Positions 850 to 37,419 of a stretch of DNA of 64,000 nt are shown here, piece after piece. The position numbers and the translations under genes were made by a program. Source of the stretch: Eledone cirrhosa (lineage: Eukaryota); contig OZ024742.1 of the NCBI GenBank assembly GCA_964016885.1, forward strand, positions 21,514,001-21,578,000. The letters are read 5' to 3'. Every line of letters begins with the position of its first letter. The first letter of the stretch is position 1. The notes under the pieces were generated by a model. That model saw only the letters and a list, made by a program, of their open reading frames with translations, made no database searches and had not been told where the DNA came from.

Positions 850-2494
850 ATGGATAACAAAAGAAAGAGAGAGAGCGCTGTCAGACAACAGAGAGAGAGG
901 GAGACTTTGTCAGCATATCAACAAGACAGCGTTCCAGCGAGGGTAAATATAAAAGAAAATATTACGAAGGAAAAGAGGAAAATAGCATTTTTAATGATAT
1001 TGTTACAGATTTAAAGTTACCAAATATTTCTAACACAAACGACACCAACAATAACACCAACACCAACACCACCAATAACAACAGCAACAACAAAAACAAC
1101 AGCGGTAAAGTCGAGAACGACAATAACAATGACAATAACAACAGCCACAACAGTACCAACGAAAACATCAACAATGACATCGATACCTGTAACAGCGATC
1201 TCAGCACCACCAGTAGGACCAGTAGCGGCAGCAATAGTGGTGCTGCTGAAAAAGGTACCACTTCTTTTGCAGGTGTCACCCGAAATATCGAAACAGTGTT
1301 AGTCACAGAGGAGGAGATGACAGTCGCAAGGGACATGGTGACAAGAAGCGCAAATAGAGTTTCCTTGAAACCACCACACAATTTTTTCAAGGACCAGCAG
1401 CTACGGACGGTAACTTACCGCACCGTAAGCAAAATGTCACATCGGGTGGAGAGAGCCACGGAGGCTCAAATCCAGAAGGCCTTGGGGTGCGTCGGGGCTC
1501 GCAAGATCCACATCACCCGAGACAGAAAGTACGCCACAGTAGAGGTACATTTCACCACGCCCCAAGAAGCGAAGTCTCACTCTTTGGAAACCCTAAAGAG
1601 TGAGGAGATAGTCTTGGTGCCCTCCTACTGCGGGCAGAAAATTGTGAGGGTCAAAGCGAATAAGAAGGCCCCTCTCCTTCGATTACCTGGTCCGCTGCTA
1701 CCAAGAGCAGGGCAGGCAACAAACGCAGAAGCTCCTTCCACGGTGTGCATGAGGGCAACGTCCGGGGCACCCGTACCAAGGCCACGGACAACAAAAGCAG
1801 CAACATCAGTAGCGGCAACACCAGTAGCTACATTTGCAGTAGCTGCACCAGCAACAAAATTGCTGGAGAGGGATCTACTACCACCACCAACAACCGTGGA
1901 GCACATACCCCTCCCAGACGCCACGGAATCCGACATGGAGTTTGAGGCGGGAATGAAGTGGCCACAAAAAAACAAAAAACAAAAAAAAACGTTAGTTTCA
2001 ACCGCCAAAAGCGAAGGCACACAAGGAGACTTGCAGCAACACCACCACTATCACCATCACCAGCACTAGCACCACCGCCAACAAAAACCACACCACCAGC
2101 ATCACCAAAAATACCAACAACGCAAACAAAACAAAACACACACACCAAACAGCAACAAGAAAAAAACAGCAACAAAATCACCCCTCCCCTAAAATAGTAC
2201 ACAGCCATAAACATGACAAATAAAGAACTCATACAATATATAAAGCAGCACACAGACATCACAGAAAAGAACTACTACACCCCCACCAACACTATGAACT
2301 CTCCCGACAAACATAAGCATCTTCGAAATCTCAATAGAACAGTACAAACTTTTAAAACAAAAATTTCCCAACGCATTTGGAGACTTCAGATGGTCAGTTA
2401 CCAAGAGGATATACACTGACATCCTCTTGGAAACCCCCATGATCAGTCAAAGGGACGGTTCTACTGTCCCTTCACCACACGATCAAGGTAAGTG
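850..2494 (+). pseudogene. Copy A ORF1, disrupted; zinc-knuckle region deleted near 1655
   Basis: ATG at 850; ORF 1296-2069 is homologous to D/E ORF1; ends DGSTVPSPHDQGK-TGA. Confidence 0.8.
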
Positions 2495-2527: not shown

Positions 2528-5500
2528 ATGGCCGTACTTGGAATAGGCAGTATAAATGAACGTGGCCTAGGTCATCTTGGAAGCAAGGTCACCTGCTCAA
2601 CGACCTCAGGTCACTAAACAGAGAGGTGGTGGCCATCAGTGAGATCAGAATCTCCGAAACACGAGCCTTCGCACCGATCTTCGGCGGCTACGATGTATAC
2701 GCATCTTCCAGCCATCCAGGATCGGAGAGGCTTGGATCTCGCCATACGGGCCATCTTCCTGGATCCAGAAGGTAATTCGGTGGTGCAGGACGTGACCGGC
2801 AGCGAAGGCAATGCTTTCAGGCTACTAGCCGTCTATGCCCCAACTGGAGCAGGATGGCCAGATTTCTTCAGACGTCTAGAGATCTTTCTTGGAACGTCCC
2901 GCTCTTTAGTGTTAGTGGGCGACTGGAACGGCATCTTGGATGCACGCTGGGATTGTGTGGGGCTAGTGGATAGGGGAGCAGGGTGCAAGAGCCTCACCAA
3001 CCTGCTCAGACGTTTTGAACTGTCTGACAGGTATCGACTGGATCACCTGAATGTGCCAAAGTGGACTTGGACAAACCGCATCGGATCATCCAGATCGTAT
3101 CTAGATAGGGTATTCTGCAGAGAACTAGATAAGGCTAGTATAAGTTGTCCACAATTTAAAATAGTCGACTACACAGACCACAAATTTGTGATCTGTGAGA
3201 TCGACATAGACTAACTTCATAGACGAGGACCTGGTTACTGGAAGCTGAACGCTTCTTTCCCGGCGTGCAAAGCCTACAGAGACCGGATTAGCGTATTAGT
3301 TAAGCGGGTTTTATTATTAGTTAAGCGGGTTTTATTATTAGTTAAGCGGGAATTAAAGTAGAGTCGATTAGGTTTAGTAAAGGACTAGTGATAGAGGAAA
3401 ATAGAATAGAGGGAGAGCTAGTCAGAAAGCTAGAAGAGGCGTTTAGGACAGGCATCGCAACCGACGTGCTTGCGGCGAGATTGGCACTCTACCAATTCTT
3501 CAACGCAAAACACGAATGCTGCGTTGTCAGAGCTAGAGCGCGTGCTCTGAAACACGAGGGGACGAAAGCTGTCCAATGGGCCCGGGTGGCAGAGGCGCGT
3601 TGTGGCAACAAAGCCACATTTCGGTCTTTATCTGACCAAAACGGGCGCGTGTTGCTCTAACCCGAGCAGATGTGTAAGGCTTTTCAGCAAAACTTTGCTG
3701 AACTGTTCGGGAGCAGCGGCGGGCCGGATCGGGGTATGCATTTCAGTGCATACCTCAATGGACTGTTTCGACTCTCGAAGACCGCATCACAGTGTTGCTA
3801 AAAGCCAATAAAAGCCGGTGAAATACGGGAAGCGATGGCTAACTGAACGAAGGGTAAATCGCCAGGTTTGTATGGTCTGCCCTACGAACTTTATGCATTT
3901 ATGTCAGACTTGTTCGGTGACCTTGGCAGACGTCTACTACAACTGGCAGCAGAACGGGAGTATTCCCAGTTTTGTGAGCCGGGGAGTGGTGGCGCTGCTG
4001 AGAAAAGAGGGATGTTATCGATAACTTCAGGTCCATAACCCTGCTAAATGCGGAGTTCAAGATTTTGGCCAAGGTGTTAGCAACGAGGTTGGTGCTTGTC
4101 GTCGGAGTTCTGGTGGGAGAGGCGCAGATATTCGCCATTCTGGACAGATCCATACACGACAATTTCCACCCATGCGATAGATCGTAGTGAGGGTGTTTAA
4201 GGAACCTGGCACGGGTGGGGCCCTGATCAACTTGGATCAATCCAAAGCATTCGATAGGGTCGACCATCGGTACTTGGAGGCGGTCCTCGAGGCAGCCGGT
4301 TTCGGGCCTGTTTTCAGGAGTTGGATCGCTGCAATGTACAGCGACATCTGCTCAGTTGTGAAGGCGAACGGTCACCTGTCGCAGCCGTTCAGCATCATGT
4401 GCTCAGTTCGCCAGGGTTGTCCCCTGTCGTCCCTCTTGTACATATTGTCTCTCGAGCCGTTACTGCACAAACTGGGGGCGATGAGGGGTGTCCCACGCGA
4501 ACTAGGATGCGGGAAATCCGAATCGGCTTACGCCGACGATGTCACCGTGGTGGTGTCGACCACCAGACACGTCCAGATGCTCGGCACTGCTCTCAAGTAA
4601 TACGAAGCTGTGACAGGAGCAAAGATAAACCACGAAAAGTCGGTGGGCTTGCAGCTCGGCACCTGGAGAGGCATGACCATGCCGTCCAACTGCGTCGTCG
4701 GGCGTTGGACGGACGGACGGTTAAATTTCTCGGGGTCTGGTTCGGACCGGACCTCCAGATGGATAAAAACTGGAGCGAGGTGACGAGCAGGGTGGCCTCC
4801 CTCATCCAGAAATGAGCCGAGAGGAAGCTGTCCTTGAAAGGCCGGACGGAGGTCGCGAATGCGTACATCACATCCGTCATCTGCTACTGCCTCACCGTTG
4901 CCCCTTGCTCCGGCCCACCTCTCACCAAAATGGAGCGCCTCCTCTTCCGCTTTTTGTGGAGGGACGCGCTCGCATGGTCAGACGAACCATCTGCTGTCAA
5001 CACCCGTTGCGTGGAGGACTGGGCATGTCACGGCTGATGATGCGCAAATATACGCTGAGGCTGCGACATCTCTGGTGCTTCCTTGACGGTGAACAGGTGT
5101 GGTCGCCGTACGCCAGGCACGTTTTCCCACAGCTCGTCTCCTTGATAGAGCTGCAGTCCTGGGGCAGGAAAAGACCGAGGGATAGCGCTTGGAAACTGGA
5201 ATGTCTCTAGGCACTCATCGCCCTCTGCCAGCTGGGCACCAATATCAGTGGAACATCCACCTCGGCGTTCTATAGAGGACTAGTGGAGGGGAAGCGCGAC
5301 TATGTTCTTAGAGAGATCCTAGGCATCGAAGAAGATCAGCTGTTTGCTCTCTTCCGGAGAACTTTCAGCCCAGGGCCTATGGATAACTTCCAAAAGTCCC
5401 TGGCCTGGCAGTGTTACCGGGGAGCGCTGCCGGTTCGAGATGAGCTCTACAGGCACGGAAGTGCCGTCAGCCGAGCCTGTCCGAGATGCGCGCAAAGCGA

Positions 5501-20153: not shown

Positions 20154-20366
20154 GAATGCCATGGTTGACGGAGGCTCGGCTCTGTAAGGTATAGTAATTT
20201 TTAACCGTTAAAACAATTGTAAATTGTTTAAAACTTGAACCAAATTGTTGATAAAGACACCCTCCTCCTCGTGAGAGGGGTCTTTCTGTCCGTTATTTGG
20301 CCCTTCGGGGTTAAATAACCAGTTATTGGGGTTTTGTACCCAAAATTTCATTTTAAACAAAAAAAC

Positions 20367-22462
20367 ATGGCTACGAAAAAGAAATTTCATACGTCACTCC
20401 CACTCATTCCGTCTTCTTCTTCCTCAATCATCACTACAGCAGAGAGAAGATTGTCTCTCTCCCTCCCTTCTTTAAATGTGTCTCTCTCCCTCCCTTCTCT
20501 TTCGCAAGCGACGAAAGAAAAGAAAAGTCTCGTGCAAAGCGTGCAAGGTTTCTCCACGACGACGACGACAGCGACGAAACAGGTGTGCGGGAAATACGAA
20601 AACCCAGTTCATTCGTCTGACGTCAGGAATAATAGCAGTAGCAGCCGTAATAACAACAGCAACAGTGACAATGAAAACAACAGTAGCAGCCGCAACAGCA
20701 TCACCAGCAGCATAAACAACAACAGCATTAGCAGCAGCAACACCAACAACAACCACAGCAACAGCGGCGGAGGCAGTAGTCGTAGTACCTGCAGCAACAA
20801 CAAAAGTACCAGCAGCTCTGACGACAACAACAACAGCAGAGAAAAACCAATCTCATTTGCAGGTATTGCGAAAAACTTGGAAACAATCCTCATAACAAAT
20901 GAGGAATTAGAGGAAGCGAAGAAGATGGTGACAAAGAACGGACACCGAGCAATCTGCAAGGCAGCGAAAAATTTTTTCGAAACCCAAGAGCACCGTACGG
21001 TCACGTACCGTACAGTAAGTACAAAATCCCGTAGGGTGGAAAGAGCCACATAGGCCCAAATACAAAAAGCCTTGGGGTCTGTGTGGCAGAGGAAAACGCA
21101 CATCACCCGAGGCAAAAAATACGCCACCGTAGACGTACTTTTTGCCACACCCCAGGAGGCAAAGGCCCAATCAGTAGTGACCCTAAGGAGCGAGGAAATG
21201 GTGTTGGTGCCCTCCTACTGCGGGCAAAAAATTGTGAGGGTCAAACTGACCCACGTCCCCCCGGAATGACCCCTTCTTGGCTGGCCGCGTCTGTCCTCGT
21301 CGGAATCGAGGACAAAACAACTGTACTGCAAGTACAGAAAAAAGTAAGAGAAGATTGGGTCGGCTCCTCCATTGAGATGCTAATCCAAACCAACCAGGAG
21401 TGCATCGAAGCTATCCCGGATGTGATAGACTTCGATAACGGCACTCAACTGCCCATAAGTGTTGAGGGCAAACGCCCGAAATGCTTTCGCTGTGGATCGA
21501 AGACTCACCTCAGGGCCTTCTGCAACGAGAAGACCCTGAGAAAGGAGAAAACCCCCCTCCTTCCGAATCCGGCTCCACGGCTACCAGCAACAGGACAAGC
21601 GGCAACCAGGAACGATAGGTCCGTGGCACCCATACCCACTCCACGGAAATCAAAGACAGCAGCAGCAGTGGAAATATTAACAACAACAACAGCAATACCA
21701 AATGCAGCTGCAACAGAGACTCCAGTGCAAACATCACCAACAACAACAAGTGAAAGAGTGGAGCTGGTACCCCTCCCCGACCTTACAGAATCAGACATGG
21801 AGTGTGAGGTGGGAGAGGGATGGCAAAAGGTCGCAAGAAGGCACAAACGCAGAAGCAGCGCATCGTCGCCTTTGAAAAGGGAGGAAAGAAATGAGAAAAG
21901 GGTAAATTCTACTGCAAAGAGACCCACAGCAGCAACACCACCAACACCATCACCACCCACACCAGCACCACCATCACCAACGGCGACAACCCCACCGCCA
22001 ACAACACCTTCAACACCACCACCACAAGCACCAACATCGCAAACACAACAACAAAACACACACACCCAGCAACAACGACAAGAAAATAGCAGAACCACAC
22101 CCCACCCCCAGAAAAACAAATGCACGGCAATAAACACACACAACAAGAAACTAATGACTTACATAATTGAACACACAGACATTTCACAACAGGACTACAT
22201 AATACCAGCACCAATCAAAACGCCAACTAACATAAGACTGCTAAATATAGCCCAGAAACAATACACAAACATTAAAACGAAATTCCCCAACGCAGTTGGT
22301 GATTTCAGGGACCTAGGAGGAACCATCAATCGAAGAGTATATTCAGACATTCTCTTAGAAGAGCCGACGACCAGCCGAAGGGACGATTCAACGGTCCCTT
22401 CACCAGACGATCAAGTGAAAAGGGATGTAAAAACCATCCCTCCTCTACCAAAACTACGGTAA
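20367..22462 (+). pseudogene. Copy D ORF1 (RRM-like region, one CCHC knuckle, Thr/Pro linker, conserved C-terminal domain); one nonsense codon and one frameshift
   Basis: TAG at 21051 where homologues have Glu; frameshift near 21260; CFRCGSKTHLRAFC. Confidence 0.88.
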
Positions 22463-22497
22463 GTGGTCTTTCCCATCTTTTCCACTCTATTTTAAAC

Positions 22498-25400
22498 ATG
22501 ACCTCACTCAGAATAGGCAGCATAAATGCGCGTGGCTTGGGGTCGTCATGGAAGCAGGGTCACCTGCTCAACGACCTCAGGTCACTAAACATAGATGTAG
22601 TGGCCATCAGCGAGACCAGAATCTCCGAAGCACGGGCCTTCGCACCGATCTTCGGCGGCTACGATGTGTACGCATCTCCCAGCCGTCCTGGATCGGGTGG
22701 AGGAGTTGCTGTGCTTTTTCGGAGAGGTTTGGATCTCGCCATACGGGCCATCTTCCTGAACCCAGAGGGTAAGCTGGTGGTGCTGGACGTGACCAGCGGA
22801 GACGGGCAAGCTTTCAGGCTAGTGGCCGTCTATGCCCCGACAGGAGCAGGGCGGCCTGATTTCTTCCGGCGTCTGGAGACCTTTCTTGGAACGTCCCGCT
22901 CTTTAGTGTTAGTGGGCGACTGGAACGGGATCTTAGATGCACGCTGGGACTGTGTGGGATTAGCGGATAGGGGTGGAGGGTGCAAGAGCCTCACCAACCT
23001 GCTCAGGCGTTTTGAACTGTCTGACAGGTACCGATTGGATTTCCCGAATGTGCCAATGTGGACTTGGACAAACTGCATAGGGTCATCCAGATCATATCTA
23101 GATAGAGTATTTTGTAGGGAAATAGATAGGTCTAGCATAGGCTGTCCACAATTCAAGATAGTCAGCTACACGGACCACAAATTCGTGATCTGTGTGCTTG
23201 ACCTAGATAGGCTTCATAGACGAGGACCCGGCTACTGGAAGCTAAACGCGTCCTTACCAGCGCGCAAGGCCTACAGAGACCGGATTAGCGAACTAGTTAA
23301 GCGGGCGTTGACGGGGGCCATCGTCAACAACAAGTGGTGGTTTGCTCTGAAAAGAGCGATTAGAATAGAATCGATTAGGTTTAGTAAGGCTTTAGCAATA
23401 GAGAAAAATAGAGCAGAGGGAGAACTAGTTAGAAAATTAGACGAGGCGCTTAGCAAAGGCATTGCGACCGACGTGCTTGCGGCGAAATTGGCCCTTGACC
23501 AATTCTTCAATGCAAAGCACGAAGGCTGCGTTGTCAGAGCTAGGGTGCGTGCTCTCAGACACGAGGGGACGAAAGCCGTTCAATGGGCCCGAGTGGCGGA
23601 GGCGCGTCGTGGCAACAAAGCCACGATCCGGTCTTTGGTGGACCACGACGGGCGCATGCTACTCGATCCCGGGCAAATGTGTGAAGCTTTTCAGCGACAC
23701 TTCGCTCAGCTGTTCGGGGGCAGCGGGGGGCCGGGTAGAGGGATGGACTTTAGTGTCTACCTCGACGGACTGCCGCGGCTCTCGGCCACTGAGGCGAAGT
23801 GTTGCGAAAAGCCGATAACAGCCGCTGAAGTAAGGGAGGCAATGACTGGCTGCACAAGGGGTAAATCGCCTGGTTTGTATGGTCTGCCCTATGAACTTTA
23901 CGTACAGATGCCAGACTTGTTCGGAGGCCTCTTGGCGGACGTCTACTGCAACTGGCAACAGAACGGGAGAATTTCCAGTTCTGTGAGCCGAGGAGCGGTG
24001 GCACTGCTGAGAAAGGATCCGAACAAGGGGGATAACATAGACAATTTCCGGCCCATAACTCTGCTAAACACAGAGTTTAAGATTTTGGCCAAGGTGCTAG
24101 CAAAGAGGTTGGCGCTTGTCGTTGGTGGTCTGGTGGGAGAGGCGCAGACATGCGCCATTCCCGACAGATCCATCCACGACAACCTCCACCTCATGCGATA
24201 CATCGTAGAGAGGGTAGCTAGGGAACCTGGCACGGGTGGGTCCTTGATCAATTTAGATCAGTCGAAAGCTTTCGATAGGGTCGACCATCGTTACCTAGCG
24301 GCAGTCCTGAGGGCGGCTGGCTTTGGGCCCGTCTTCAGAGGCTGGATCGCTGCCATGCACAGCGACATCTGCTCTGTGGTGAGAGTGAACGGTCACCTGT
24401 CGGAACCGTTCAACATCATGCGCTCGGTCCGCCAAGGATGTCCCCTCTCGTCCCTCTTGTACGTATTGACGCTCGAGCCATTACTGCACAAACTGGAGAC
24501 GTTGAGGGGAGTCCCGCGCGAACTAGGATGCGGAAGATCCGTGTCAGCATATGCGGACGATGTCACCGTAGTGGTGTCGAACGCCAAACACATCGAGGCG
24601 ATCGGCACTACACTAAGAGAATACGAAGCGGTGACAGGAGCAATGATCAACCAGGAAAAGTCAGTGGGCCTGCAGCTCGGCACCTGGAGAGGCAGGTCCA
24701 TGCCGTCCAACAGCGTCGTCGGGCGCTGGACGGACGGACCGGTTAAATTGCTAGGGGTCTGGTTCGGTCCGGACCTCCAGACGGACAAAAACTGGGACGA
24801 GGTGACGAGCAGGGTGGCTTCTCTCACCCAGAAATGGGCGGAGAGGAAGCTATCCCTGAAAGGTCGAGCGGAGGTGGCTAACGCGTACATCGCGTCTGTC
24901 ATCTGCTACCGCCTAACCGTCGTACCTTGTCCTAAGCCTCGCCTGACTGCGCTGGAGCGTTTGCTCTTTCGCTTTTTGTGGAAGGGACGTGCTCCGATGG
25001 TCAGGCGGTCCATCTGTTGTCAACACCCGCTACGTGGAGGGCTGGGCATGCCGTGGCTGATGATGCGCAGGCACGCGCTCAGGCTACGACATCTCCACCT
25101 CTTCCTCGACGGTGATCAGGTGTGGTCGCCGTTTGCTAGACGCGTTTTTCCCCAGCTCGTTTCCTTGACGGAGCTGCAGTCCTGGGTCAAGCGAAGACCG
25201 AGAGGGAGCGCCTGGAGACTGGAATGTCTTCAGGCGCTCACAGCCCTCGACCAATCGGGCAATGTGATCGGTGGAAACTCCACCTCGGCGTTCTATAGAG
25301 GATTAGTGGAGGGGAAGAGCGACGACGTACTTGGGGAAACTCTAGGCGTCGACGAAAATCAACTAGCCAATCTCTTCGGAAGAACTTTCGGGCCAGGGCC

Positions 25401-25917
25401 TATGGACAACTTCCAGAAATCTCTGGCCTGGCAGTGCTACCGAGGATCCTTGCCAGTTCGGGATAAACTCTACAGGCATGGAGGTGCCGTCAGCCGGGCA
25501 TGTCCGAGAAGCGCGCAGGGCGACGAAACCGTACTGCACGCACTCGTCCAGTGTCCGAAAATTGCTGACTTGTGGGTTTATGTCGAACACCTGCTGTCGC
25601 GTTTAGGACGGATCCGGCTATCATCTGAGTCCATCGTGAGGATTGCCCCGCCCTCCTCCTTTAGCCGGGAAGGGCAGGCAGTTTTTATCTGCCTGGTGGC
25701 CATGGTGAAAGAGATAGTATGGTGGACACGTTTGAAAGGGCTGAAGACGAGCACTTACCTCTTCGGTGATGCTCTGATTGACTTTTTCAAATTTCATTTG
25801 AAAAGGAAAATCAGAGTAGAGAGGGAAGTGCTCTCTTCCCAGCATTTTGTTGAAAGATGGGTGAGAGAAGCAAGAATGGCCCGAGTGAATGGGCCTACTC
25901 TGAGTATATATCTGTAA
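22498..25917 (+). CDS. Copy D ORF2: APE endonuclease, reverse transcriptase, C-terminal zinc finger, 1139 aa
   Basis: SINARGL, ISET, GDWN, TDHK (EN); NFRPITLLN, DQSKAFDRV, RQGCPLS, YADD (RT). Has PGLYG and CPRS substitutions at motifs that read PGLDG and CPRC in copy E. Confidence 0.96.
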   Translation: MTSLRIGSINARGLGSSWKQGHLLNDLRSLNIDVVAISETRISEARAFAPIFGGYDVYASPSRPGSGGGVAVLFRRGLDLAIRAIFLNPEGKLVVLDVTSGDGQAFRLVAVYAPTGAGRPDFFRRLETFLGTSRSLVLVGDWNGILDARWDCVGLADRGGGCKSLTNLLRRFELSDRYRLDFPNVPMWTWTNCIGSSRSYLDRVFCREIDRSSIGCPQFKIVSYTDHKFVICVLDLDRLHRRGPGYWKLNASLPARKAYRDRISELVKRALTGAIVNNKWWFALKRAIRIESIRFSKALAIEKNRAEGELVRKLDEALSKGIATDVLAAKLALDQFFNAKHEGCVVRARVRALRHEGTKAVQWARVAEARRGNKATIRSLVDHDGRMLLDPGQMCEAFQRHFAQLFGGSGGPGRGMDFSVYLDGLPRLSATEAKCCEKPITAAEVREAMTGCTRGKSPGLYGLPYELYVQMPDLFGGLLADVYCNWQQNGRISSSVSRGAVALLRKDPNKGDNIDNFRPITLLNTEFKILAKVLAKRLALVVGGLVGEAQTCAIPDRSIHDNLHLMRYIVERVAREPGTGGSLINLDQSKAFDRVDHRYLAAVLRAAGFGPVFRGWIAAMHSDICSVVRVNGHLSEPFNIMRSVRQGCPLSSLLYVLTLEPLLHKLETLRGVPRELGCGRSVSAYADDVTVVVSNAKHIEAIGTTLREYEAVTGAMINQEKSVGLQLGTWRGRSMPSNSVVGRWTDGPVKLLGVWFGPDLQTDKNWDEVTSRVASLTQKWAERKLSLKGRAEVANAYIASVICYRLTVVPCPKPRLTALERLLFRFLWKGRAPMVRRSICCQHPLRGGLGMPWLMMRRHALRLRHLHLFLDGDQVWSPFARRVFPQLVSLTELQSWVKRRPRGSAWRLECLQALTALDQSGNVIGGNSTSAFYRGLVEGKSDDVLGETLGVDENQLANLFGRTFGPGPMDNFQKSLAWQCYRGSLPVRDKLYRHGGAVSRACPRSAQGDETVLHALVQCPKIADLWVYVEHLLSRLGRIRLSSESIVRIAPPSSFSREGQAVFICLVAMVKEIVWWTRLKGLKTSTYLFGDALIDFFKFHLKRKIRVEREVLSSQHFVERWVREARMARVNGPTLSIYL

Positions 25918-26176
25918 ATTAAAGGTGGAAAACTGGGAGAGGGCACTTGCCTTGGTGGTCAGGGTCATTGTGGCTTTTTACTGGGCTTTCACCACAAATG
26001 TCCCTCCGAAGTCTCCCCCCTATTGGGGAATTTTTCATTGTTATTTTCATTGTTATTTTTGTTACATCCTCTGTTTTTGTTTTTTACACGCAGAAATGCC
26101 CATTTGTACCGTCCTGCATTGTCCTGCACTGTCCTTAATGTCTACTTTATGTAAACCCTTGTGGTTAATAAAGAAA

Positions 26177-26220
<44 letters not shown>

Positions 26221-26429
26221 GGCGACCTACGTAGGAAATCGTATTATCGTGAGCTCCGCAAAGGTTTGTTATTTCCGTTTGTTTAAAAATTGCCATTTAT
26301 GGAAAATTTTATTGTAAACTGTTTATAAGCACACATACATTGTTTTCCGAAAAGGACACCCAAAAAGATTGGGGCCTTGTGCCCAAAATTTTAACTTTTA
26401 TTATTATCCAAAAATTTCTTTGAAAAAAA

Positions 26430-28416
26430 ATGGCTAATTCCCCTCTGCACGAAGCAGCTGAAAGCCTTCCTCACAAAATAACACCTCACACCGACACCAC
26501 CATTGTAAATGTTACTACGTTTGCCAACACAAAAAAAAATATAAGCAGTAGCAATATTTTAAATTTGTCTCAGGCAGACATTCATTTCCCGCCATTACCA
26601 ATGACTGCAGGTGTTAAACCCTCCACCACCACCACCACCGCGACAACCACCACCACCACCACCACCGCGACAACAGAAACAAAAGAAGAAAAAAATAAAT
26701 TAACTCGTGACGTCGAAATGAAATCAAGCAAAATGGACTCTTCCCCACCAAAGACAACTGACGTCACCACCAGCACAACTGAAAATAAAATTAATATTAA
26801 CGATAGCAACAACAACAACAATGACATTATAAAACCGACCCTCAGTTTCGCCATCGTAGCAAAACAATTCGAAGCGTTCACGGTAACTCAAGAAGATTTA
26901 GAAAATGCCAAACAAATGGTAAAGAAAGATGGGTACAGGGTCAGCCTCACCCCCCCACCTAATAAAATGGAGCATCGGCGCCTGTGCACCGTGTCGTATA
27001 GAACAATAAATGTAAAATTGCGCCGAGTGGAACGGGCATCCGAGTCCCAAATCCAAAAAGCTTTGGGACATGTGTGGGCAAGAAAAACCCACATCAGACG
27101 TGGGCAAAAGTATGGAACCGTGGATGTGTTCTTTGAAACACCAGAGGAGGCTAGAGAACACTCCATGGCCCCATTAAAAAGTGACGACTTCACACTCGTC
27201 CCAAGCTATTGTGGCCAGAGACTCGTAAAGATCAGGGTGACCCACGTTCCACCGGCCATCGAAATTCCCTGGCTAATAGCGGCTGTCATCGCCGGCATCG
27301 AGGCCAACACGAAAATAATAACAATAGCAAAAGAAAAGCAGGAAAACTGGTCCGGATCTGGGATGGAGCTCCTGATCCAAGCGGACCAAAAAAGCATTGA
27401 GGAGATCCCAGAGGTAATAGACCTCACTGACGGCAGCCACCTCACGGTAATTGTCGAGGGCAGAAGACCTAGGTGTGTCGTTTGTGGTGAAGGAACCCAC
27501 CTAAGGGCTTTCTGCCCTCAGGCTAAAAGGTTGAGGCCACCTCTCCTACCCACCCCAGTGACACAACCATCAACACCACCAGAAGCAGAGATGCCAGCAA
27601 CAACTGTAGCAGCAACAACAGAAGCAACTATAACAGCAACAACCCCAGCAACAGTAGCAAAAACCAACACCACTACCACCACCAGCAAAACGAACACCAC
27701 CACCACCCAACGCTTCAGAACAAGCACCAGCGCCTACACCATCCACCACACCACAACCAAAACTAACGGCTGTGGAGGATTTTCCACTCCCCGGCCTATC
27801 ACAACTGGAGACAGATTGTGACGACGAGGAGTGGGAAACGATATCCGGAAAAAAAAAAAGAAACCAAAAAAGAAAAAATTCTCTTCCTTCCCCCTCCAAA
27901 AACAAAATACAGAGGGAAACAAATAAACTAAGAAACAAAAAAGTTAGGACAGATATGCCACCATCCACACCATCATCACCAACCCCATCAACCCAAACAC
28001 CAACACCATCACCATCATTATCCCCAGCACCACTATCACCTACACCACAAAAGTCACCAAAATACGAAACAGAAACAAACCCACAACAAACGCAAACAAA
28101 ACAAAACAACCAAAACGATACACACTACACAGCATTAAATTTGAACAACAAGCAATTATTACACTGCATCCAACACAACACCAGCATCACAGAAAAAGAC
28201 TACACAACAACCCCAAAATTCACACCACCTCCACACATACAAATCACTCGCATCACACAGAAAACGTACATGACACTAAAACAAAAATTCCCCAAAGACA
28301 TCGGAGACTTCCGACAAGCACTCTCCAGGAGGATTTATAAGGACATCCTTCCTGAGGAGGCCACAAGCAGTGAAAAGGATGGAAAAGCCGTCCTTCCCCT
28401 ACGAGAAGTAAGGTAA
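26430..28416 (+). CDS. Copy E ORF1 (CCHC knuckle protein), with a single frameshift near 27705 in the Thr-rich linker
   Basis: ORFs 26430-27821 and 27772-28416; CVVCGEGTHLRAFC. The frameshift may be a mutation or a sequencing error. Confidence 0.85.
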
Positions 28417-28450
28417 GTGGTCTTTCCCATCTTTTCCACTCCTTTTCAAC

Positions 28451-31400
28451 ATGACCTCACTCAGAATAGGCAGCATAAATGCGCGTGGCTTGGGGTCGTC
28501 ATGGAAGCAGGGTCACCTGCTCAACGACCTCAGGTCACTAAACATAGATGTAGTGGCCATCAGCGAGACCAGAATCTCCGAAGCACAGGCTTTCGCACCG
28601 ATCTTCGGCGGCTACGATGTGTACGCATCTCCCAGCCGTCCGGGATCGGGGGGAGGAGTTGCTGTGCTTTTGCGGAGAGGTTTGGATCTTGCCATACGGG
28701 CCATCTTCCTGGACCCAGAAGGTAAGTTGGTGGTGCTGGACGTGACCAGCGGAGACGGGCAAGCTTTCAGGTTAGTGGCCGTCTATGCCCCGACAGGAGC
28801 AGGGCGGCCTGATTTCTTCCGGCGTCTGGAGACCTTTCTTGGAACGTCCCGCTCTTTAGTGTTAGTGGGCGACTGGAACGGGATCTTAGATGCACGCTGG
28901 GATTGTGTGGGATTAGTGGATAGGGAAGGAGGGTGCAAGAGTCTCACCAACCTGCTCAGACGTTTTGAACTGTCTGACAGGTACCGAATGGATTTCCCGA
29001 ATGTACGCATGTGGACTTGGACAAATCGCATAGGGTCATCCAGATCATATCTAGATAGAGTATTTTGTAGGGAAATAGATAGGTCTAGCATAGGCTGTCC
29101 ACAATTCAAGATAGTCAGCTACACGGACCACAAATTCGTGATCTGTGTGCTTGACTTAGATAGGCTTCATAGACGAGGACCCGGCTACTGGAAGTTAAAC
29201 GCGTCCTTACCAGCGCGCAAGGCCTACAGAGACCGGATTAGCGAACTAGTTAAGCGGGCGTTGACGGGGGCCATCGTCAACAACAAGTGGTGGTTTGCTC
29301 TGAAAAGAGCAATTAGAATAGAGTCCATTAAGTTTAGTAAGACTTTAGCAATAGAGAAAAATAGAGCAGAGGGAGAATTAGTTAGAAAATTAGATGAGGC
29401 GCTTAGCAAAGGCATCGCGACCGACGTGCTTGCGGCGAAATTGGCCCTTGACCAATTCTTCAATGCAAAGCACGAAGGCTGCGTTGTCAGAGCTAGGGTG
29501 CGTGCTCTCAGACACGAGGGGACGAAAGCCGTTCAATGGGCCCGAGTGGCGGAGGCGCGTCGTGGCAACAAAGCCACGATCCGGTCTTTGGTGGACCACG
29601 ACGGGCGCATGCTACTCGATCCCGGGCAAATGTGTGAAGCTTTTCAGCAACACTTCGCTCAACTGTTCGGGGACAGTGGCGGGCCGGATCGAGGGATGGA
29701 CTTTAGTGTCTACCTCGACGGACTGCCGCGGCTTTCGGCCACTGAGGCGGAGTGTTGCGAAAAGCCGATAACAACCGCTGAAGTACGGGATGCAATGACT
29801 AGTTGCACAAGGGGTAAATCGCCTGGTTTGGATGGTCTGCCCTATGAACTTTACGTACAAATGCCAAACTTGTTCGGAGGCCTCTTGGCGGACGTCTACT
29901 GCAACTGGCAACAGAATGGGAGAATTCCCAGCTCTGTGAGCCGAGGAGCGGTGGCGCTGCTGAGAAAGGATCCGAACAAGGGGGATAACATAGATAATTT
30001 TAGGCCCATAACTCTGCTAAACACAGAGTTCAAGATTTTGGCCAAGGTGCTAGCAAAGAGGTTGGCGCTTGTCGTTGGTGGTCTGGTGGGAGAGGCACAG
30101 ACATGCGCCATTCCCGACAGATCCATCCACGACAACCTCCACCTCATGCGATACATCGTAGAGAGGGTAGCTAGGGAACCTGGCACGGGTGGGTCTTTGA
30201 TCAATTTAGATCAGTCGAAAGCCTTCGATAGGGTCGACCATCGTTACCTAGCGGCAGTCCTGAGGGCGGCTGGCTTTGGGCCCGTCTTCAGAGGCTGGAT
30301 CGCTGCCATGCACAGCGACATCTGCTCTGTAGTGAGAGTGAACGGTCACCTTTCGGAACCGTTCAACATCATGCGCTCGGTCCGCCAAGGATGTCCCCTC
30401 TCGTCCCTATTGTACGTATTGACTCTCGAGCCATTACTGCACAAACTGGAGACGTTGAGGGGGGTCCCGCGCGAACTAGGATGCGGAAGATCCGTGTCAG
30501 CATATGCCGACGATGTCACCGTAGTGGTGTCGAACGCCAAACACATCGAGGCGATCGGCACTACACTAAGAGAATACGAAGCGGTGACAGGAGCAATGAT
30601 CAACCAGGAAAAGTCAGTGGGCCTGCAGCTCGGCACCTGGAGAGGCAGGTCCATGCCGTCCAACAGCGTCGTCGGGCGCTGGACGGACGGACCGGTTAAA
30701 TTGCTAGGGGTCTGGTTCGGTCCAGACCTCCAGACGGACAAAAACTGGGACGAGGTGACGAGCAGGGTGGCTTCTCTCACCCAGAAATGGGCCGAGAGGA
30801 AGCTATCCCTGAAAGGTCGAGCGGAGGTGGCGAATGCGTACATCGCATCCGTCATCTACTACCGCCTGACCGTCGTACCTTGTCCTAAGCCCCGCCTGAC
30901 TGCGCTGGAGCGTTTGCTCTTTCGCTTCTTGTGGAAGGGACGCGCTCCGATGGTCAGGCGGTCCATCTGCTGTCAACACCCGCTACGTGGAGGGCTGGGC
31001 ATGCCGTGGCTGATGATGTGCAGACACGCGCTCAGGCTACGACATCTCCACCTCTTCCTCGACGGTGATCAGGTGTGGTCGCCGTTTGCAAGACACGTTT
31101 TTCCCCAGCTCGTCTCCTTGACGGAGCTGCAGTCCTGGGTCAAGCGAAGACCGAGAGGGAGCGCTTGGAGACTGGAATGTCTTCAGGCGCTCACAGCCCT
31201 CGACCAATCGGGCAATGTGATCGGTGGAAACTCCACCTTGGCGTTCTATAGGGGATTAGTGGAGGGGAAGAGCGACGACGTACTTGGAGAAACTCTAGGC
31301 GTCGACGAAAATCAACTAGCCAATCTCTTCGGAAGGACTTTCGGGCCGGGGCCTATGGACAACTTCCAGAAATCCCTGGCCTGGCAGTGCTACCGAGGAG

Positions 31401-31870
31401 CTTTGCCAGTTCGGGATAAACTCTACAGGCATGGAGGTGCCGTCAGCCGGACATGTCCGAGATGCGCGCAGGGCGACGAAACCGTCCTGCACGCACTCGT
31501 CCAGTGTCCGAGCATTGCTGACTTGTGGGTTTATGTCGAACACCTGCTGTCACGTGTAGGACGGATCCAGCTATCAGCTGAGTCCATCGTGAGGATTGCC
31601 CCGCCCCCTTCCTTTAGCCTGGAAGGGCAGGCAGTTTTTATCTGTCTGGTGGCCATGGCGAAAGAGATAGTATGGTGGACACGTTTGAAAGGGCTGAAGA
31701 CGAGCACTTACCTCTTCGGTGATGCCCTGATTAACTTTTTCAAATTTCATTTGAAAAGGAAAATCAGGGTAGAGAGGGAAGTGCTCTCTTCCCAGCATTT
31801 TGTTGAAAGATGGGTGAGAGAAGCAAGTATGGCCCGAATGAATGGGCCTTCTCTGAGTATGTGTCTGTAA
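28451..31870 (+). CDS. Copy E ORF2: APE endonuclease, reverse transcriptase, zinc finger, 1139 aa, apparently intact
   Basis: All EN and RT motifs present, including SPGLDGLP, YADD and CPRCAQGDETVLHALVQC. Confidence 0.97.
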   Translation: MTSLRIGSINARGLGSSWKQGHLLNDLRSLNIDVVAISETRISEAQAFAPIFGGYDVYASPSRPGSGGGVAVLLRRGLDLAIRAIFLDPEGKLVVLDVTSGDGQAFRLVAVYAPTGAGRPDFFRRLETFLGTSRSLVLVGDWNGILDARWDCVGLVDREGGCKSLTNLLRRFELSDRYRMDFPNVRMWTWTNRIGSSRSYLDRVFCREIDRSSIGCPQFKIVSYTDHKFVICVLDLDRLHRRGPGYWKLNASLPARKAYRDRISELVKRALTGAIVNNKWWFALKRAIRIESIKFSKTLAIEKNRAEGELVRKLDEALSKGIATDVLAAKLALDQFFNAKHEGCVVRARVRALRHEGTKAVQWARVAEARRGNKATIRSLVDHDGRMLLDPGQMCEAFQQHFAQLFGDSGGPDRGMDFSVYLDGLPRLSATEAECCEKPITTAEVRDAMTSCTRGKSPGLDGLPYELYVQMPNLFGGLLADVYCNWQQNGRIPSSVSRGAVALLRKDPNKGDNIDNFRPITLLNTEFKILAKVLAKRLALVVGGLVGEAQTCAIPDRSIHDNLHLMRYIVERVAREPGTGGSLINLDQSKAFDRVDHRYLAAVLRAAGFGPVFRGWIAAMHSDICSVVRVNGHLSEPFNIMRSVRQGCPLSSLLYVLTLEPLLHKLETLRGVPRELGCGRSVSAYADDVTVVVSNAKHIEAIGTTLREYEAVTGAMINQEKSVGLQLGTWRGRSMPSNSVVGRWTDGPVKLLGVWFGPDLQTDKNWDEVTSRVASLTQKWAERKLSLKGRAEVANAYIASVIYYRLTVVPCPKPRLTALERLLFRFLWKGRAPMVRRSICCQHPLRGGLGMPWLMMCRHALRLRHLHLFLDGDQVWSPFARHVFPQLVSLTELQSWVKRRPRGSAWRLECLQALTALDQSGNVIGGNSTLAFYRGLVEGKSDDVLGETLGVDENQLANLFGRTFGPGPMDNFQKSLAWQCYRGALPVRDKLYRHGGAVSRTCPRCAQGDETVLHALVQCPSIADLWVYVEHLLSRVGRIQLSAESIVRIAPPPSFSLEGQAVFICLVAMAKEIVWWTRLKGLKTSTYLFGDALINFFKFHLKRKIRVEREVLSSQHFVERWVREASMARMNGPSLSMCL

Positions 31871-32112
31871 ATTAAAGGTGGAAAACTGGGAGAGGGCACT
31901 TGCCCTGGTGGTCAGGGCCACTGTGGTCTTTTAATGGGCTTTCTCCACAAATGTCCCTTGGAAGTCTCCCCCCTATTGGGGAATTTTTCTTTGTTATTTT
32001 ATTTCAACCTCTGTTTTTTTACACGCAGAAATGCCCATTTGTGCCGTCCTGTATTGTCCTGTACTGTCCTTAATGTCTACTTTATGTGAACCCTTGTGGT
32101 TAATAAAGAAAA

Positions 32113-32168
<56 letters not shown>

Positions 32169-32395: not shown

Positions 32396-32739
32396 TCATA
32401 ATATTTATGGAAAAATTCATAGCGCTGTTCATCGGTTCTAATCGTACCGAAGTCATGTTATCGGGTTCGATGAAATATAATATCAATCAATGAAGTAATG
32501 GTATCGATATAATCGATTGATCTCTGTGACTAAATTGGCAAATATTATATTTTTATTCTTTAATCTTTTAATACGAGGCAAGCTATTGTATGCATGTATT
32601 GTATACGATGTCCATATGAGATTCGACAAAAACGATGACTGATGTTGGAAACTGGTGTATAATTATTACCTCAGCCTCTATTATAATGACATGATAGAGA
32701 TGATGGGAACAATATGGCGACCATGATTATAACTACAAT

Positions 32740-33084
32740 GATGGATTTGATGACAATGATAGTATGGAATACTGAGATAATGACAATGATGATTTGTGAT
32801 TATTATAACGATTAAGGTTGATAATTATAATGATGACGATGATGATGGTTGTGGTGGTAATGGTAGTGAGGGTAATGCTGTTGATGATGAAGATGATGAT
32901 GATGATGATGCTGATGATGATGACGATTATGATGATGATGTTGGTGGTGGTTGTGGTGGTGGTGATGGTGGTGGAGGTGGTGGTGGTGATGGTGGTGGCG
33001 GTGGTGGTGATGGTAATGATTATGATGGTGGTGGAATTGGTGGTGGTGATTGTGATAATAATGATGATTTTGATGATGATGATA

Positions 33085-33116
<32 letters not shown>

Positions 33117-33236
33117 GGTGATGATGATGATAAATATGATGATGAACATCATGATGATGTTGATGATGATGAGGATGATGATGATGAGGATGATGGTGGG
33201 ATTGGTGGTGGTGGTGGTGGTGGTGGTGATAATGAT

Positions 33237-33270
<34 letters not shown>

Positions 33271-33400
33271 ATGATAATGATGATGATAAGTTGGCGGTGA
33301 TAATCATTAATGACATGTATGTGAACGCTAATGATGTTAATAAAATCCGCTATGTGGACAACTATGGTTATGTTTGAGGATAATAATAATGTTAATAATA
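32740..33400. repeat. (GAT/GGT)n low-complexity tract
   Basis: Direct inspection; produces spurious poly-D/G/M/V/I ORFs. Confidence 0.92.
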
Positions 33401-34739
33401 ATATTTTTCTTTCAGATAACACCACTGAACTCATTGTACCTAGATTACAAAGGGGCTGAAATAAAATTAATTGAAGACTTTGTCTAACTTCATTACTTTG
33501 GATCAGATATCCATCTCAACTCATTAACGTATATTTCAGTCAGCCGATTATCTTAGAGGATTAATTCTCTTCATAAAAATAACGTATCAATTACCAGAAA
33601 ATATCAGAAAGACAAATTATCTCTGATTTCTAAATTCTGAAACGTCGTTATCCAATTAATTCCTGGTGATTTAATCCTTACATTCCATTCTCCCTGCCAA
33701 ATAAATATTGTTCTATCCATATGTGCTTCACAATGTCAGCTAAACCACAATGTAAGGAATCCTATACAAAAGCCATGCTTTCAAACTCGGTTATGTATTA
33801 TCAGTACATTACCTAATAATTCAAGCTCAGACACACATGATTAGACTTAATGTAAACACATTCCAATTTTCACCTCTTAATAGAAAATAAGAATAGGATC
33901 CACGAGCATTTTCATAGACCCTATCACTGGTGGAAGGGAAATAGAGAGGTTTCTCACTCTCGGAGAACTAGTCCAAAAGCTTACACCAGAGACGACTTTG
34001 ATCAAACACAGACGGATTATATGTGGTTGAACCAGACAATGAATTAATTCAAACAGTTGGCTTCGATGGTACTGGAACTCCAAATGCCATGGGCCACCTT
34101 TCGTTTTCTCTCAATCTGGCACAAATATATTACACTGAAGAAAAATCTTTTATGCTACAGTCCTTCTTTTCTTTTTCTTCTATTCATTTCCATTTTTCAT
34201 AACTTTTTGTTCCATTTTAGAGATTATCTGCCTTGGCGGTAAGAATTAAGAACGTCAGAATTTTATTAGATTTCTCATATTTTGATTTCAATCCAAGGAA
34301 ATGTTAATACATAATCTGAGTTGGTAAAAATATAATTGATTATCGCAATAAAATCTTTTGCCAAATTATTGATTCTTTCACTATTAGTTATATAGGAATA
34401 CTGATAAGAGTGCAATGTAGTTTTCCTGAATTGTTGTGCCAAATATGGCGGATTGTGTGATTTAAAAGGACTACAGCTATGCGAATAGGGCATTACATTT
34501 TAAATATGTCGTTGAAAAAGATGTTGAGTAGTCGTTAATATTTTGGGTATAAAATTCCTCCGTGAAACGAAGAAAAGTAGAAATTAATTCGGAGCAGGAC
34601 ATATAGTGTTTAGCTTATGCATAAGAACAACACATAATGTGCTGCTCCGATTACGTATATTTTGTTTGGAAGCCTAATTTCTGTTTTTTCTTTCCTCTCT
34701 TAAGTTTCAGAAAGAGGTGTTCGATCTGAAATAATTTTC

Positions 34740-35524: not shown

Positions 35525-37419
35525 CTACCCCATAACTAGCATTTTATTTTAAACACCCCAGACAGAAAATATGAAACGGTGCCTTTGGGTGAATTTGAAT
35601 TCAGATCGTAAAGAACTGCGGCAATACTGTAAATTATTTTATTTCAGGTGCTAAAATGTCAGAAAAACAATTTTAATTCCTCACTTCTCTCGAAATAGGT
35701 GCTAATAATTTAGATTAGTTACATAAGTCACTATTGATATTTTCGGCTTTATTTGATTTAAATACTTTTAAGGCAATTGAAAAAAAATACAATTTTATTG
35801 ATTACGTTAGTTTTAAATATTCTGTACCATTGGTATAGAATTCCAGCGTTTCCTAGGAAATACATAACATAGAAATTGATAACAAAAGTCAACGTGAGTT
35901 CCATTGTAATTCTCTAAGTATCAGACTTCGTTTCAAACAAAATGAAAATAAATATTTCCTACATACTTATATATTCTTATAGAAGTCACCATTTCTGTGA
36001 CGAAACGGAGACTGCTATAGCAATTTCTACATTTTTTTTCTTTCAATATACATTTAGAAACTCAACTACAGCTTTCAAAGAAAATAATATACATGTGGAT
36101 ACCTAGAATATTATGCTAATCTAGAATTCTCACCAGAAACAGCATGGTGAAAGAGAAACGAAATCTACGATATTTCTTGATATTGATAAAGCTAGGCAGT
36201 AGAAAACTATTTTCCAGTATTAATCTGTATAATGATATCTGGAAGGCCGTGGATCTAGAATTATAAATGAATCCCACAAACAATTCTCCAAAAAGTGATA
36301 ATATAAGAAGGGAACGTCTGAAGATGCTTCTAAAGCTGGTGTATTGTGATAAAAGCAGGTTTCTGAAATATGTATTAGCTTCCTTTGTATGGGATTCTCT
36401 TTATTCTCATAAAACTTCCCGTGTATTATGTCTGAATAAGATATATATATATATATATATATTTTTTTATTATTCAGATTTTTCTTCGACTGCCTCGTAT
36501 ATATATATGTGTGTGTGTGCGTGTATGTGTGTGTCTGTATATGTGTGTGTATGTGTGTGTGCGTGTGTATATATATGTATGTATGGCAAAAGAAGGGACA
36601 AGTGACAACTCTGATTAAATTAACACGGTAGAGTACGTTCTTTGAAGCTGGTTTGATGAAAGGCAATGTCGACATATCTTCTGGAGACATTAACTATAAA
36701 CTTGCAACTTTTTGCGATTCCAAATATTTTTGGACATATTCTTTAAAATTCATCCTACCTTTCTAAAATTAGACTACATGACAATTATATATTGTTTGTT
36801 TCACGACAAAACAAAGGAAAGGATATTTATTAGAGTTGCAACAGTTTGTAGTGAAAGAAAATTACTTCCCATAGTTATAATTATATAGACTTGACGGTTG
36901 CGTTTACCTTCGAAGACAGTTGCTAGGTAATAAAATCTGTGATCAGAAGACATTATCAAAACCGAGGAAAACAAGATAAATCATTATATAAGGATAAAAT
37001 AAATAAAAAATTGGCGTAAAACAAATGAAATAGATTTCTTATATTGCATAGAAATATCTATATGTAATATTATTAGAATTCTTATTCATATTTCATACTG
37101 TACATTTTATTGTTGTTCATAATATCAATCTTCTTCAACATATTAACTCTATTATAGTAGGTTATTTTCTTACTTATGAAAATGGAAAAAAATGATAGTT
37201 AAGACAAACATTTATATGAACCAATGACAAAAATATGCATATGTACAGATATAGGAGCCTGCTAGATTTTTTATCCATCCCTATTCGTTGACGGAATATG
37301 TTCCGAGAATTGAATTTAAAATGTTCGGAATTTTGAAGCGTTGTCAAAGTAAAGACAGGTAACATATCAAACATACATATATCACATCCATAACACTTCC
37401 ATCTTCTTTTTCTATTTCT

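Follow-up and report, generated by a model that had tools for sequence, protein, structure and literature searches.

In EVADE and other Arabidopsis Ty1/copia elements, a conserved U1-type donor lies at the boundary between the structural and the enzymatic region, and U1 bound to the EVD donor inhibits premature termination and protects the full-length RNA (PMC5580714, in excerpt). In retroviruses, the negative regulator of splicing (NRS) of RSV is a U1-binding decoy donor that stays unspliced, while foamy virus makes a spliced pol mRNA and so has separate mRNAs for its structural and enzymatic genes (PMC9143442, in excerpt). The human L1 5' UTR contains a conserved donor that is rarely used but whose mutation cuts RNA about 5-fold, and spliced copies (SpIREs) account for about 2% of full-length human L1s (PMC5860796, in excerpt). 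For L1 and SART1, termination-reinitiation has been proposed as the route to ORF2 (PMC5972666, in excerpt). A survey of vertebrate L1s found no spacer structure in common and does not mention splicing (PMC5381506), and a report of 13 recently active L1-Tx1 families in Octopus vulgaris mentions neither splice signals nor introns (PMC13282606).

We analyzed a window of 64,000 nucleotides from contig OZ024742.1 of Eledone cirrhosa, which holds copies A, C, D and E of a LINE lineage, all features described here lying on the plus strand. Copy E is a full-length element (26221..32168) that starts directly 3' of the trinucleotide tail of copy D (20154..26220), itself full length. The ORF1 of copy E (26430..28416), with one frameshift near 27659, is RRM/CCHC-like by language-model features, its neighbors in that comparison being CCHC and ZCCHC3-like RNA-binding proteins (0.91-0.93), while a Pfam search of ORF1 returned nothing above the cut-off. 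Its intact ORF2 of 1139 aa (28451..31870) encodes APE endonuclease, RT and zf-RVT domains. ORF2 of the lineage is of the L1-group type, with an APE endonuclease, an RT and a C-terminal zinc finger, and is closest to L1: it matched PF03372, PF00078 and PF13966, and its best solved relative was human L1 ORF2p (E 1.6e-53), with R2 at 6e-21. The elements end in tri- or tetranucleotide tails, the next copy begins directly after the tail (insertion into repetitive targets), and tandem arrays with a period of about 5.8 kb are formed. The lineage is very abundant, with more than 20,000 endonuclease candidates in the genome. In its APE-RT-zinc-finger ORF2, microsatellite tails and head-to-tail stacking it resembles the target-specific LINEs of the Tx1 clade (PMC4640811, in excerpt), and the Tx1 label that it had been given earlier is plausible.

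The first-pass annotation had placed a donor-consensus GT at the end of ORF1 in copies A (2488), D (22459) and E (28413), and all three were seen in the window. The 5' splice-site consensus of copy E, a predicted U1 site, spans 28410..28418 with the GT in phase 2, and the ORF1 stop (28414-28416) lies within it; the inter-ORF spacer that follows (28419..28450) is C/T-rich, contains no AG and ends in a conserved start context (A at -3). In copy D the consensus (22456..22464) is also in phase 2 with the ORF1 stop inside, and is followed by an intact ORF2 (22498..25917) that is 96% identical to that of E. The 5' UTR and ORF1 of copy D are unlike those of E, and the identity of 96% runs from about 45 nt 5' of the donor through ORF2; since it covers the donor region, D and E count as a single junction and not as independent evidence. 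Copy A is decayed, with its consensus at 2485..2493 in phase 1 and its ORF2 start at 2528..2546.

The claim that the donor is conserved could be extended to the lineage as a whole, as a donor-like motif was found at or just 5' of the ORF1 stop in 11/11 families (A, D/E, B, F, G, H, H2, I, J, K and M, with H3, H4 and N examined additionally). Family independence was judged from a matrix of ORF2 identity, which ranged from 66 to 89% among the eight families with an intact ORF2. Each of the eight motif columns from -2 to +6 was common to 10-11 of the 11 families; for comparison, 61 of 264 4-fold columns (23%) were invariant across eight families, and pairwise third-position identity between families was 50-78%. 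When ORF2 starts were located by ORF2 sequence alone, the donor was present at 147 of 161, and the 14 donor-less starts comprised 13 whose motif was altered by base changes or a small indel, and a single truncated one. A strong donor, by a pattern defined after the families had been seen, occurred in 10/10 family junction windows and in 18/520 windows of the ORF2 body. By a crude U1-pairing score, the junction donor was unbeaten by any other site in 9 of 12 representatives; in K it was outscored only by the 5' UTR donor, and in D and H several sites were equal or better. The variants observed (+3 G, +4 G, +5 T and -2 G) are all U1-compatible and tolerated by splice donors, +3 G and +4 G being present also in the host myosin donors inspected. 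The conservation of the donor is far above chance. Outside the lineage, the motif was not enriched in distant L1/Tx1-like metagenome relatives of 23-31% identity (1/46 vs 37/855 background windows); its rarity there indicates that the clade does not generally require it, and a clade-wide motif was rejected.

Neutral inheritance, by which a stop codon with chance flanks would have been passed on by common descent, is scarcely credible. Each of the three common motif variants does include a stop codon, and all families have a single ancestor; however, the motif was kept while adjacent spacer columns and synonymous sites diverged, it occupies all three ORF1 phases across families, and in families B and J ORF1 reads through it, which argues for retention at the nucleotide level and not merely of a stop. 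These sequence comparisons suggest that selection maintains a 5' splice-site consensus where ORF1 meets ORF2 in this LINE lineage. The fallback proposal of the first-pass annotation, a U1-binding site, thereby gains support from motif conservation and donor-like variation.

A conserved donor at this boundary makes the lineage like EVADE and other Ty1/copia elements, but those are LTR elements that encode Gag-Pol in a single frame, have conserved acceptors and demonstrably produce a spliced Gag RNA (PMC5580714, in excerpt), whereas the lineage here is a two-ORF LINE without a conserved acceptor. RSV and foamy virus are retroviruses, and the NRS, which is located within gag, binds U11 as well (PMC9143442, in excerpt). 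Human L1 shares with the lineage a conserved donor in a LINE, but that donor belongs to the 5' UTR, has been explained by a RUNX3 site and is accompanied by about 2% processed copies; the excerpt of PMC5860796 describes no junction donor, and the searches run on the lineage here found no processed copies. The short spacer or overlap between ORF1 stop and ORF2 start is as in L1 and SART1, for whose junctions a splice-site consensus is not mentioned in the excerpt of PMC5972666.

Instead, the motif might belong to an RNA or DNA element that serves packaging or the translation of ORF2, such as a hairpin between the purine-rich ORF1 end and the pyrimidine spacer that holds the terminating ribosome. 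Donor bases were predicted to pair with the spacer in most families, both the start context and the distance from motif to ORF2 start (25-54 nt) are conserved, and reinitiation is the route to ORF2 proposed for L1 and SART1 (PMC5972666, in excerpt). However, the fold was no stabler than that of shuffled spacers (mean z -0.39, 14 sequences), for which a specific hairpin over the donor was rejected; the pairing register varies between families, the variation tracks the donor consensus, and 5' UTRs carry the motif again, a long way from any stop. We regard such an element in place of a U1 site as rather improbable. In family J (623 matches) ORF2 lacks an AUG; the codon in its place, ATA in all of the first 100 matches listed, is overlapped by the ORF1 stop, an arrangement that agrees with reinitiation. 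Translation of L1 ORF2 is AUG-independent.

The donor was originally read as the start of an intron of 52-59 nt whose removal would fuse ORF1 to ORF2 in frame. In the window copies the details of that proposal hold: the spacers of A, D and E are pyrimidine-rich and AG-free, the first AG ends at 2546, 22511 and 28464 to give 59, 53 and 52 nt, and the donor phases (1, 2 and 2) match those of the acceptors. In copy E this AG (28463..28464) falls in Arg codon 5 of ORF2. Copy A was said to have lost the phase-2 AG and regained the match, but the loss proved private to the window copy; in its family, 27 of the 29 copies scored (30 were fetched and one was not anchored) retain a pyrimidine-AG in codon 5 of ORF2, where it is not in frame with the donor of phase 1. 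Across the 11 families, donor and first AG match in phase in five (D/E, B, H2, I and M) and mismatch in five (A, G, H, J and K), F being mixed, so that the conserved in-frame mini-intron failed the phase test which its own proposal had set. The Arg and Ile/Val-Gly codons at the start of ORF2 supply phase 2 and phase 1 AGs in most families, which makes a nearby in-frame AG nearly automatic. The first AG is in frame also in H3 and H4, sisters of H2, a later in-frame AG lies 50-59 nt from the donor in A, G and H, and branch-point-like motifs were seen by eye in several spacers. Nevertheless, J and K lack any in-frame AG upstream of the conserved Asn motif of the endonuclease, several first AGs are in poor context, and the distance from donor to first AG (26-61 nt) compares with 89, 90 and 93 nt for the short host introns read by hand, three introns that do not fix a minimum. 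A 3' splice site in matching phase was not found conserved across the 11 families, its position and context varying. A fused RNA would moreover carry the RT in cis, yet precise loss of the intron, which genomic copies could have recorded, was found in none of 25 variant D/E junctions beside 4,242 intact ones, with search patterns that covered both first-AG and second-AG products. Removal of this intron is thus very doubtful.

More widely, no acceptor at the junction, within ORF2 or in the 3' UTR was conserved across families. In the main rival explanation, splicing runs from the donor to an acceptor that is distal or specific to the family, whether in the 3' UTR, at the ORF2 stop or together with early polyadenylation, to yield an ORF1-only subgenomic mRNA comparable to Ty1/copia Gag. 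This would fit a donor that, as in EVD (PMC5580714, in excerpt), is placed between the structural and the enzymatic gene, and it draws on several acceptor-like sites. In H, H2, I, J, K and M, the AG at the ORF2 stop is among the top seven acceptor scores, and strong 3' UTR acceptors occur in D/E/F and B, the tract of copy E lying at 32005..32028 (tract end 32028) and those of D and C ending at 26093 and 20035. By a post hoc hand reading, ORF1 joined at the ORF2 stop would terminate within three codons in six of eight families. However, no acceptor is common to all families: the 3' UTR tract of C, D and E is not conserved in G, H and K, which have no AG in the U-rich tract, and the stop-match rule failed prospectively, with A fitting, H3 and H4 not, and N ambiguous. 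A processed ORF1-only copy was found neither for E nor for G/B or H/H2/K/M. An ORF1-only RNA would lack ORF2 in cis and hence would not be copied into the genome, so the cis preference would account for the missing copies (PMC5860796, in excerpt). Overall, we consider this explanation possible but unlikely. As general rules, a distal 3' UTR acceptor was rejected since it is missing in G, H and K and E has no joined copy, and ORF2 as one whole intron was rejected since the post hoc match in six of eight families was not upheld prospectively and joined copies were not found.

By hand reading, 9 of 13 distinct 5' ends have the exact donor hexamer close to their start, and these 5' UTR donors have an AG 57-73 nt downstream and resemble real short introns. 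Copy D has a donor-like site near 20184-20189, while the 5' UTR of copy E (26261..26329) has a weak one (GT 26264) with a 66-nt AG-free stretch. The second donor raises the alternative that ORF1 behaves as a cassette exon, with the 5' UTR donor sometimes spliced to the start of ORF2 to give an ORF2-only mRNA as in foamy virus, and the junction donor limiting this by steric interference. An AG just 5' of the ORF2 AUG is indeed present in five families, with an acceptor context that is strong in H, H2 and one F copy but weak in G and B, and by hand reading the first exon of D and I contains an in-frame AUG. Against this, A, D/E, I, J, K, M and H3 have no AG upstream of the AUG, the first exons of E, J and K have no AUG, and a processed copy joining the 5' UTR donor to the ORF2 start was found neither in I nor among 27 H-lineage variants or five D/E variants. 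The cassette-exon arrangement is accordingly judged quite improbable.

Other searches for processed copies were likewise negative. Loss of the 5' UTR intron was found in 0/356 I-type copies and in none of the 50 inspected of 102 E-type variants, which included all six listed that begin with C. Two D-type copies (L433 and L434) carry a deletion across the spacer, but with 3-nt microhomology and out of frame, so they do not represent intron loss; the ORF1-ORF2 join of copy C (about 17878) was discarded as a splice product because its ends are not GT..AG. Four runs of unrecorded kind, aligned as contigs to copy E, showed GT..AG ends at none of the 15 joints listed, with 526 more beyond the listing, an uninformative count that carries no weight here. 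The missing processed copies are compatible with spliced RNAs from which ORF2 or the 3' end is missing.

A donor with no conserved partner signal, for which no spliced copies were found, would most readily be understood as a docking site that protects full-length RNA. We tentatively favor, at somewhat less than an even chance, a U1 snRNP site under selection that mostly stays unspliced and preserves the bicistronic RNA at full length, ORF2 being translated by reinitiation. U1 snRNP would bind the donor consensus at the ORF1 stop and seldom lead to splicing, the spacer being probably too short and the AGs too poor for a complete spliceosome. The C/U tract downstream may aid binding, as such tracts do in TIA-1-type enhancement of U1 binding. 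Bound U1 would block premature cleavage/polyadenylation or decay of the A-rich transcript, the second donor near the 5' end may give the same protection to ORF1, and ribosomal reinitiation on the unspliced RNA would likely yield ORF2. The inhibition of premature termination by U1 at the EVD donor and the RSV NRS decoy donor speak for docking (PMC5580714 and PMC9143442, both in excerpt). Most canonical poly(A) signals lie in ORF1, 5' of the motif, and ORF2 has only 0-3, so the need for downstream protection is not obvious. The intron-like 5' UTR donors, the five families with an AG just 5' of the ORF2 AUG and the lack of enrichment in distant L1/Tx1-like elements speak against docking. It is also possible, at a probability well short of even, that the lineage uses the host spliceosome as an expression switch, in which the 5'-end donor and the ORF1-stop donor allow a separate spliced mRNA for ORF1 (or for ORF2 or a fusion of the two), only the unspliced RNA being copied.

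Splicing is regarded as harmful to LINEs. Here, an abundant LINE lineage retains a near-perfect donor at the ORF1 stop despite heavy synonymous divergence, usually together with a second donor at the 5' end. Natural differences between the families in start codon, phase and spacer length provide a ready test set. If U1 docking is true, a LINE would have converged on the strategy by which Ty1/copia elements and retroviruses protect full-length RNA. If the RNA is spliced, this would be a new route to ORF1:ORF2 balance, an open question for all L1-group elements, and the use of the spliceosome as a switch would represent a retrovirus-like, splicing-based ORF1:ORF2 program in a non-LTR element, of which no description was found in the literature searched. 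On either reading, thousands of copies spread strong donors across the host genome.

The window lies on a contig (G000:C3) of a 3.0-Gb animal genome and holds five L1-group LINE copies, for which the label Tx1 is plausible: copy A is decayed, B is a 3' fragment, C is internally deleted, and D and E are full length with an intact ORF2 of 1139 aa each. ORF2 carries APE endonuclease, RT and zf-RVT domains, and among the solved structures compared the nearest was human L1 ORF2p. The first-pass annotation had proposed a mini-intron of 52-59 nt running from a donor consensus at the ORF1 stop (GT at 2488 in A, 22459 in D and 28413 in E) to the first AG, fusing ORF1 to ORF2 in frame; on re-reading the window, its coordinates, lengths and phases at the three junctions were all as given. 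D and E, taken there as separate cases, count once, since their junction and ORF2 are 96% identical from ~45 nt upstream of the donor; up to that point their ORF1s and 5' UTRs differ.

Further families were gathered using diverged endonuclease proteins and the copy B ORF2 as queries, the junction never serving as bait, and the donor motif was present 15-62 nt upstream of 147 of the 161 ORF2 starts found in this way; of the other 14, one was truncated and the remaining 13 differed within the motif by base changes or a small indel. With one copy taken per family, each donor column from −2 to +6 was common to 10 or 11 of 11 families, bearing out the expected conservation of the motif, and the flanking columns were common to just 4-9. 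Among the eight families with intact ORF2, the ORF2 proteins are 66-89% identical and 4-fold codon third positions 50-78% identical, with 61 of 264 such columns invariant. A strong donor, defined by a pattern written after the families were seen, occurred in 10/10 junction windows versus 18/520 ORF2-body windows. The variants among families (+3 G, +4 G, +5 T and −2 G) are tolerated by splice donors, and +3 G and +4 G were also present in the host myosin donors read. The donor is in phase 2 in families D/E, H2, I, K, M and F, in phase 1 in A, G and H, and in phase 0 in B and J, where the ORF1 frame runs through the motif; these three phases and the read-through indicate selection on the nucleotides and not on the stop codon alone. 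The conserved donor at the junction is real and selected, and it is very improbable that the motif arose by chance. At the junctions of distant L1/Tx1-like elements on metagenome contigs, it was found in 1 of 46, the background rate, and the motif is therefore lineage-specific. In one such element (L279, ~1747-1843), a perfect donor precedes a pyrimidine tract and an AG a short way upstream of ORF2.

No such conservation holds for the acceptor at the junction. The distance from donor to first AG runs from 26-32 nt in B through 34 in H, 36 in G, 39 in H2, J and M, 42 in I, 52-53 in D/E and 54 in A to 61 in K, with 49 or 60 in F. Families D/E, B, H2 (H3 and H4, its sisters, behave the same way), I and M have this AG in frame; in A, G, H, J and K it falls out of frame, and F is mixed, so the idea of a conserved in-frame fusion fails. 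Because ORF2 opens with Arg and Ile/Val-Gly codons, it almost always offers AGs in both phase 2 and phase 1, and in families J and K no in-frame AG was found upstream of the endonuclease Asn motif. By a crude acceptor score, junction AGs are very poor in I, K and M and near zero in D/E. Family A numbers 1,779 candidates in the genome; 30 loci were fetched, of which one was not anchored, and the pyrimidine-AG of ORF2 codon 5 is retained in 27 of the 29 scored, so that in this family a phase-1 donor meets a phase-2 first AG. This AG is gone only in window copy A and one other, and the phase compensation read into copy A is an accident of one copy. Three short host introns in myosin genes measured 89, 90 and 93 nt, too few to set a minimum.

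Spliced RNAs of a LINE leave a record in the genome: in humans, copies of such RNA make up about 2% of full-length L1s (PMC5860796). Beside 4,242 exact intact D/E junctions, the suggested check for genomic copies with exact intron loss found none. Three patterns pairing the D/E exon end with other sequence, including both nearest predicted products and, in part, other second exons, gave 9, 4 and 12 matches; all 25 variant junctions were read, and they comprised point changes, small deletions, inversions and one microhomology deletion, with no exact loss. Sought from the acceptor side, exact loss was likewise absent from 5 D/E and 27 H-lineage variants. A fused RNA would supply RT in cis and so ought to leave copies; the missing processed copies therefore count, together with the unconserved acceptor, against the mini-intron, which is not supported and which we regard as improbable. 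Two D/E-type copies (L367 and L370) invert right at the donor and fold back into ORF1.

The missing copies are no argument against RNAs without ORF2 or the 3' end. An RNA carrying ORF2 only is unlikely, at about the level of the mini-intron or slightly above. Splicing to an ORF1-only RNA is a doubtful but appreciable possibility: D/E and F have a strong 3' UTR acceptor (ending at 32028 in E), and in most other families the ORF2 stop forms an AG, which together suggested that the whole of ORF2 might be an intron. After the join, 6 of 8 families would meet a stop within 3 codons, a post hoc match that failed on new families, with A fitting, H3 and H4 not fitting and N ambiguous, and searches for copy E and for families G, B, H, H2, K and M found no ORF1-only genomic copies; ORF2 as a whole-length intron was set aside. 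A translation or structural element is also rather unlikely, as the hairpin predicted over the donor in most families does not exceed shuffled-spacer controls in stability (mean z −0.39).

L1 ORF2 translation is AUG-independent. In family J (L348, L349, L371-L380), the ORF2 start was ATA in all of the 100 first-listed of 623 matches, the ORF1 stop overlaps this codon, and the sole type of 5' exon seen contains no AUG. This arrangement suits termination-reinitiation, the route suggested for L1 and SART1 in PMC5972666, or else a −1 slip where ORF1 stops, and does not fit a spliced fusion; family J, with at least 623 copies, is a natural case of AUG-independent ORF2 expression or of such a slip. 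A second, exact donor hexamer was read by hand within ~25-65 nt of the element start in 9 of 13 distinct 5' ends, several of which are homologous and so not independent counts; it is weaker in D, E and B, and A has no clear one. Most of these 5' UTR donors have an AG 57-73 nt further on, at times with a branch-like motif (20184-20256 and 26264-26329 in the window; L347, L350, L355, L357, L385, L393, L401 and L528). Copies without the intron-like stretch numbered 0 of 356 I-type and 0 of the 50 E-type inspected among 102 variants.

Copies C, D and E form a head-to-tail stack in which each begins directly 3' of the trinucleotide tail before it; such arrays arise at the preceding copy's microsatellite tail (window 16947-32168; G000:C1:423365215-423418066), the largest having ~10 copies at a 5.8-kb period. 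Tails are trinucleotide in families D/E, A, B, G, F and N and tetranucleotide in H, I, J and K, and copies of family M (L352, L353, L391 and L392) sit within a longer tandem satellite with a unit of several tens of bases, possibly a change of target. In copy C, a deletion whose ends lack GT..AG links late ORF1 (17261-17878) to mid-ORF2 (equivalent of 23905) in one open frame of 438 aa. Modules of 5' UTR and ORF1 are exchanged among ORF2 lineages (20154-22414 versus 26221-28369; L341 3' flank, L533 and L540), and I-type 5' UTRs were also found on H-lineage copies. An endonuclease piece at 64% identity opens an Octopus sinensis 'tectonic-3-like' gene model (P0002 residues 41-101), either exonised or an annotation error; from this match the host is probably an octopod. 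Elsewhere in the window, a frame at 62604-63734 resembles a Penelope-type RT end with GIY-YIG endonuclease and one at 37174-37845 resembles the C-terminus of an RTE-type ORF; 32733-33515 is a long low-complexity trinucleotide repeat with open frames on both strands.

Overall, the junction has a selected donor consensus with neither a conserved acceptor nor processed copies. We tentatively favour a U1 docking site: the donor would be bound by U1, the short spacer would mean that the spliceosome is rarely completed, U1 at the site may protect full-length RNA, and ORF2 would be made through reinitiation. Such protection would resemble that at the donor of the Arabidopsis Ty1/copia element EVADE (PMC5580714) or at the decoy donor of the RSV negative regulator of splicing (PMC9143442). 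Counting against protection, poly(A) signals are concentrated in ORF1, upstream of the motif, and PMC5860796 ascribes the human L1 5' UTR donor to a RUNX3 site. Full-text searches, largely of open-access papers, turned up no LINE in which this junction carries a conserved donor; a term search for 'splic' had no match in PMC5381506 and PMC13282606, and PMC1636488 concerns splice sites in Drosophila TART. The conserved ORF1/ORF2-junction donor is a variant of a known regulatory kind, apparently new to the literature for LINEs.
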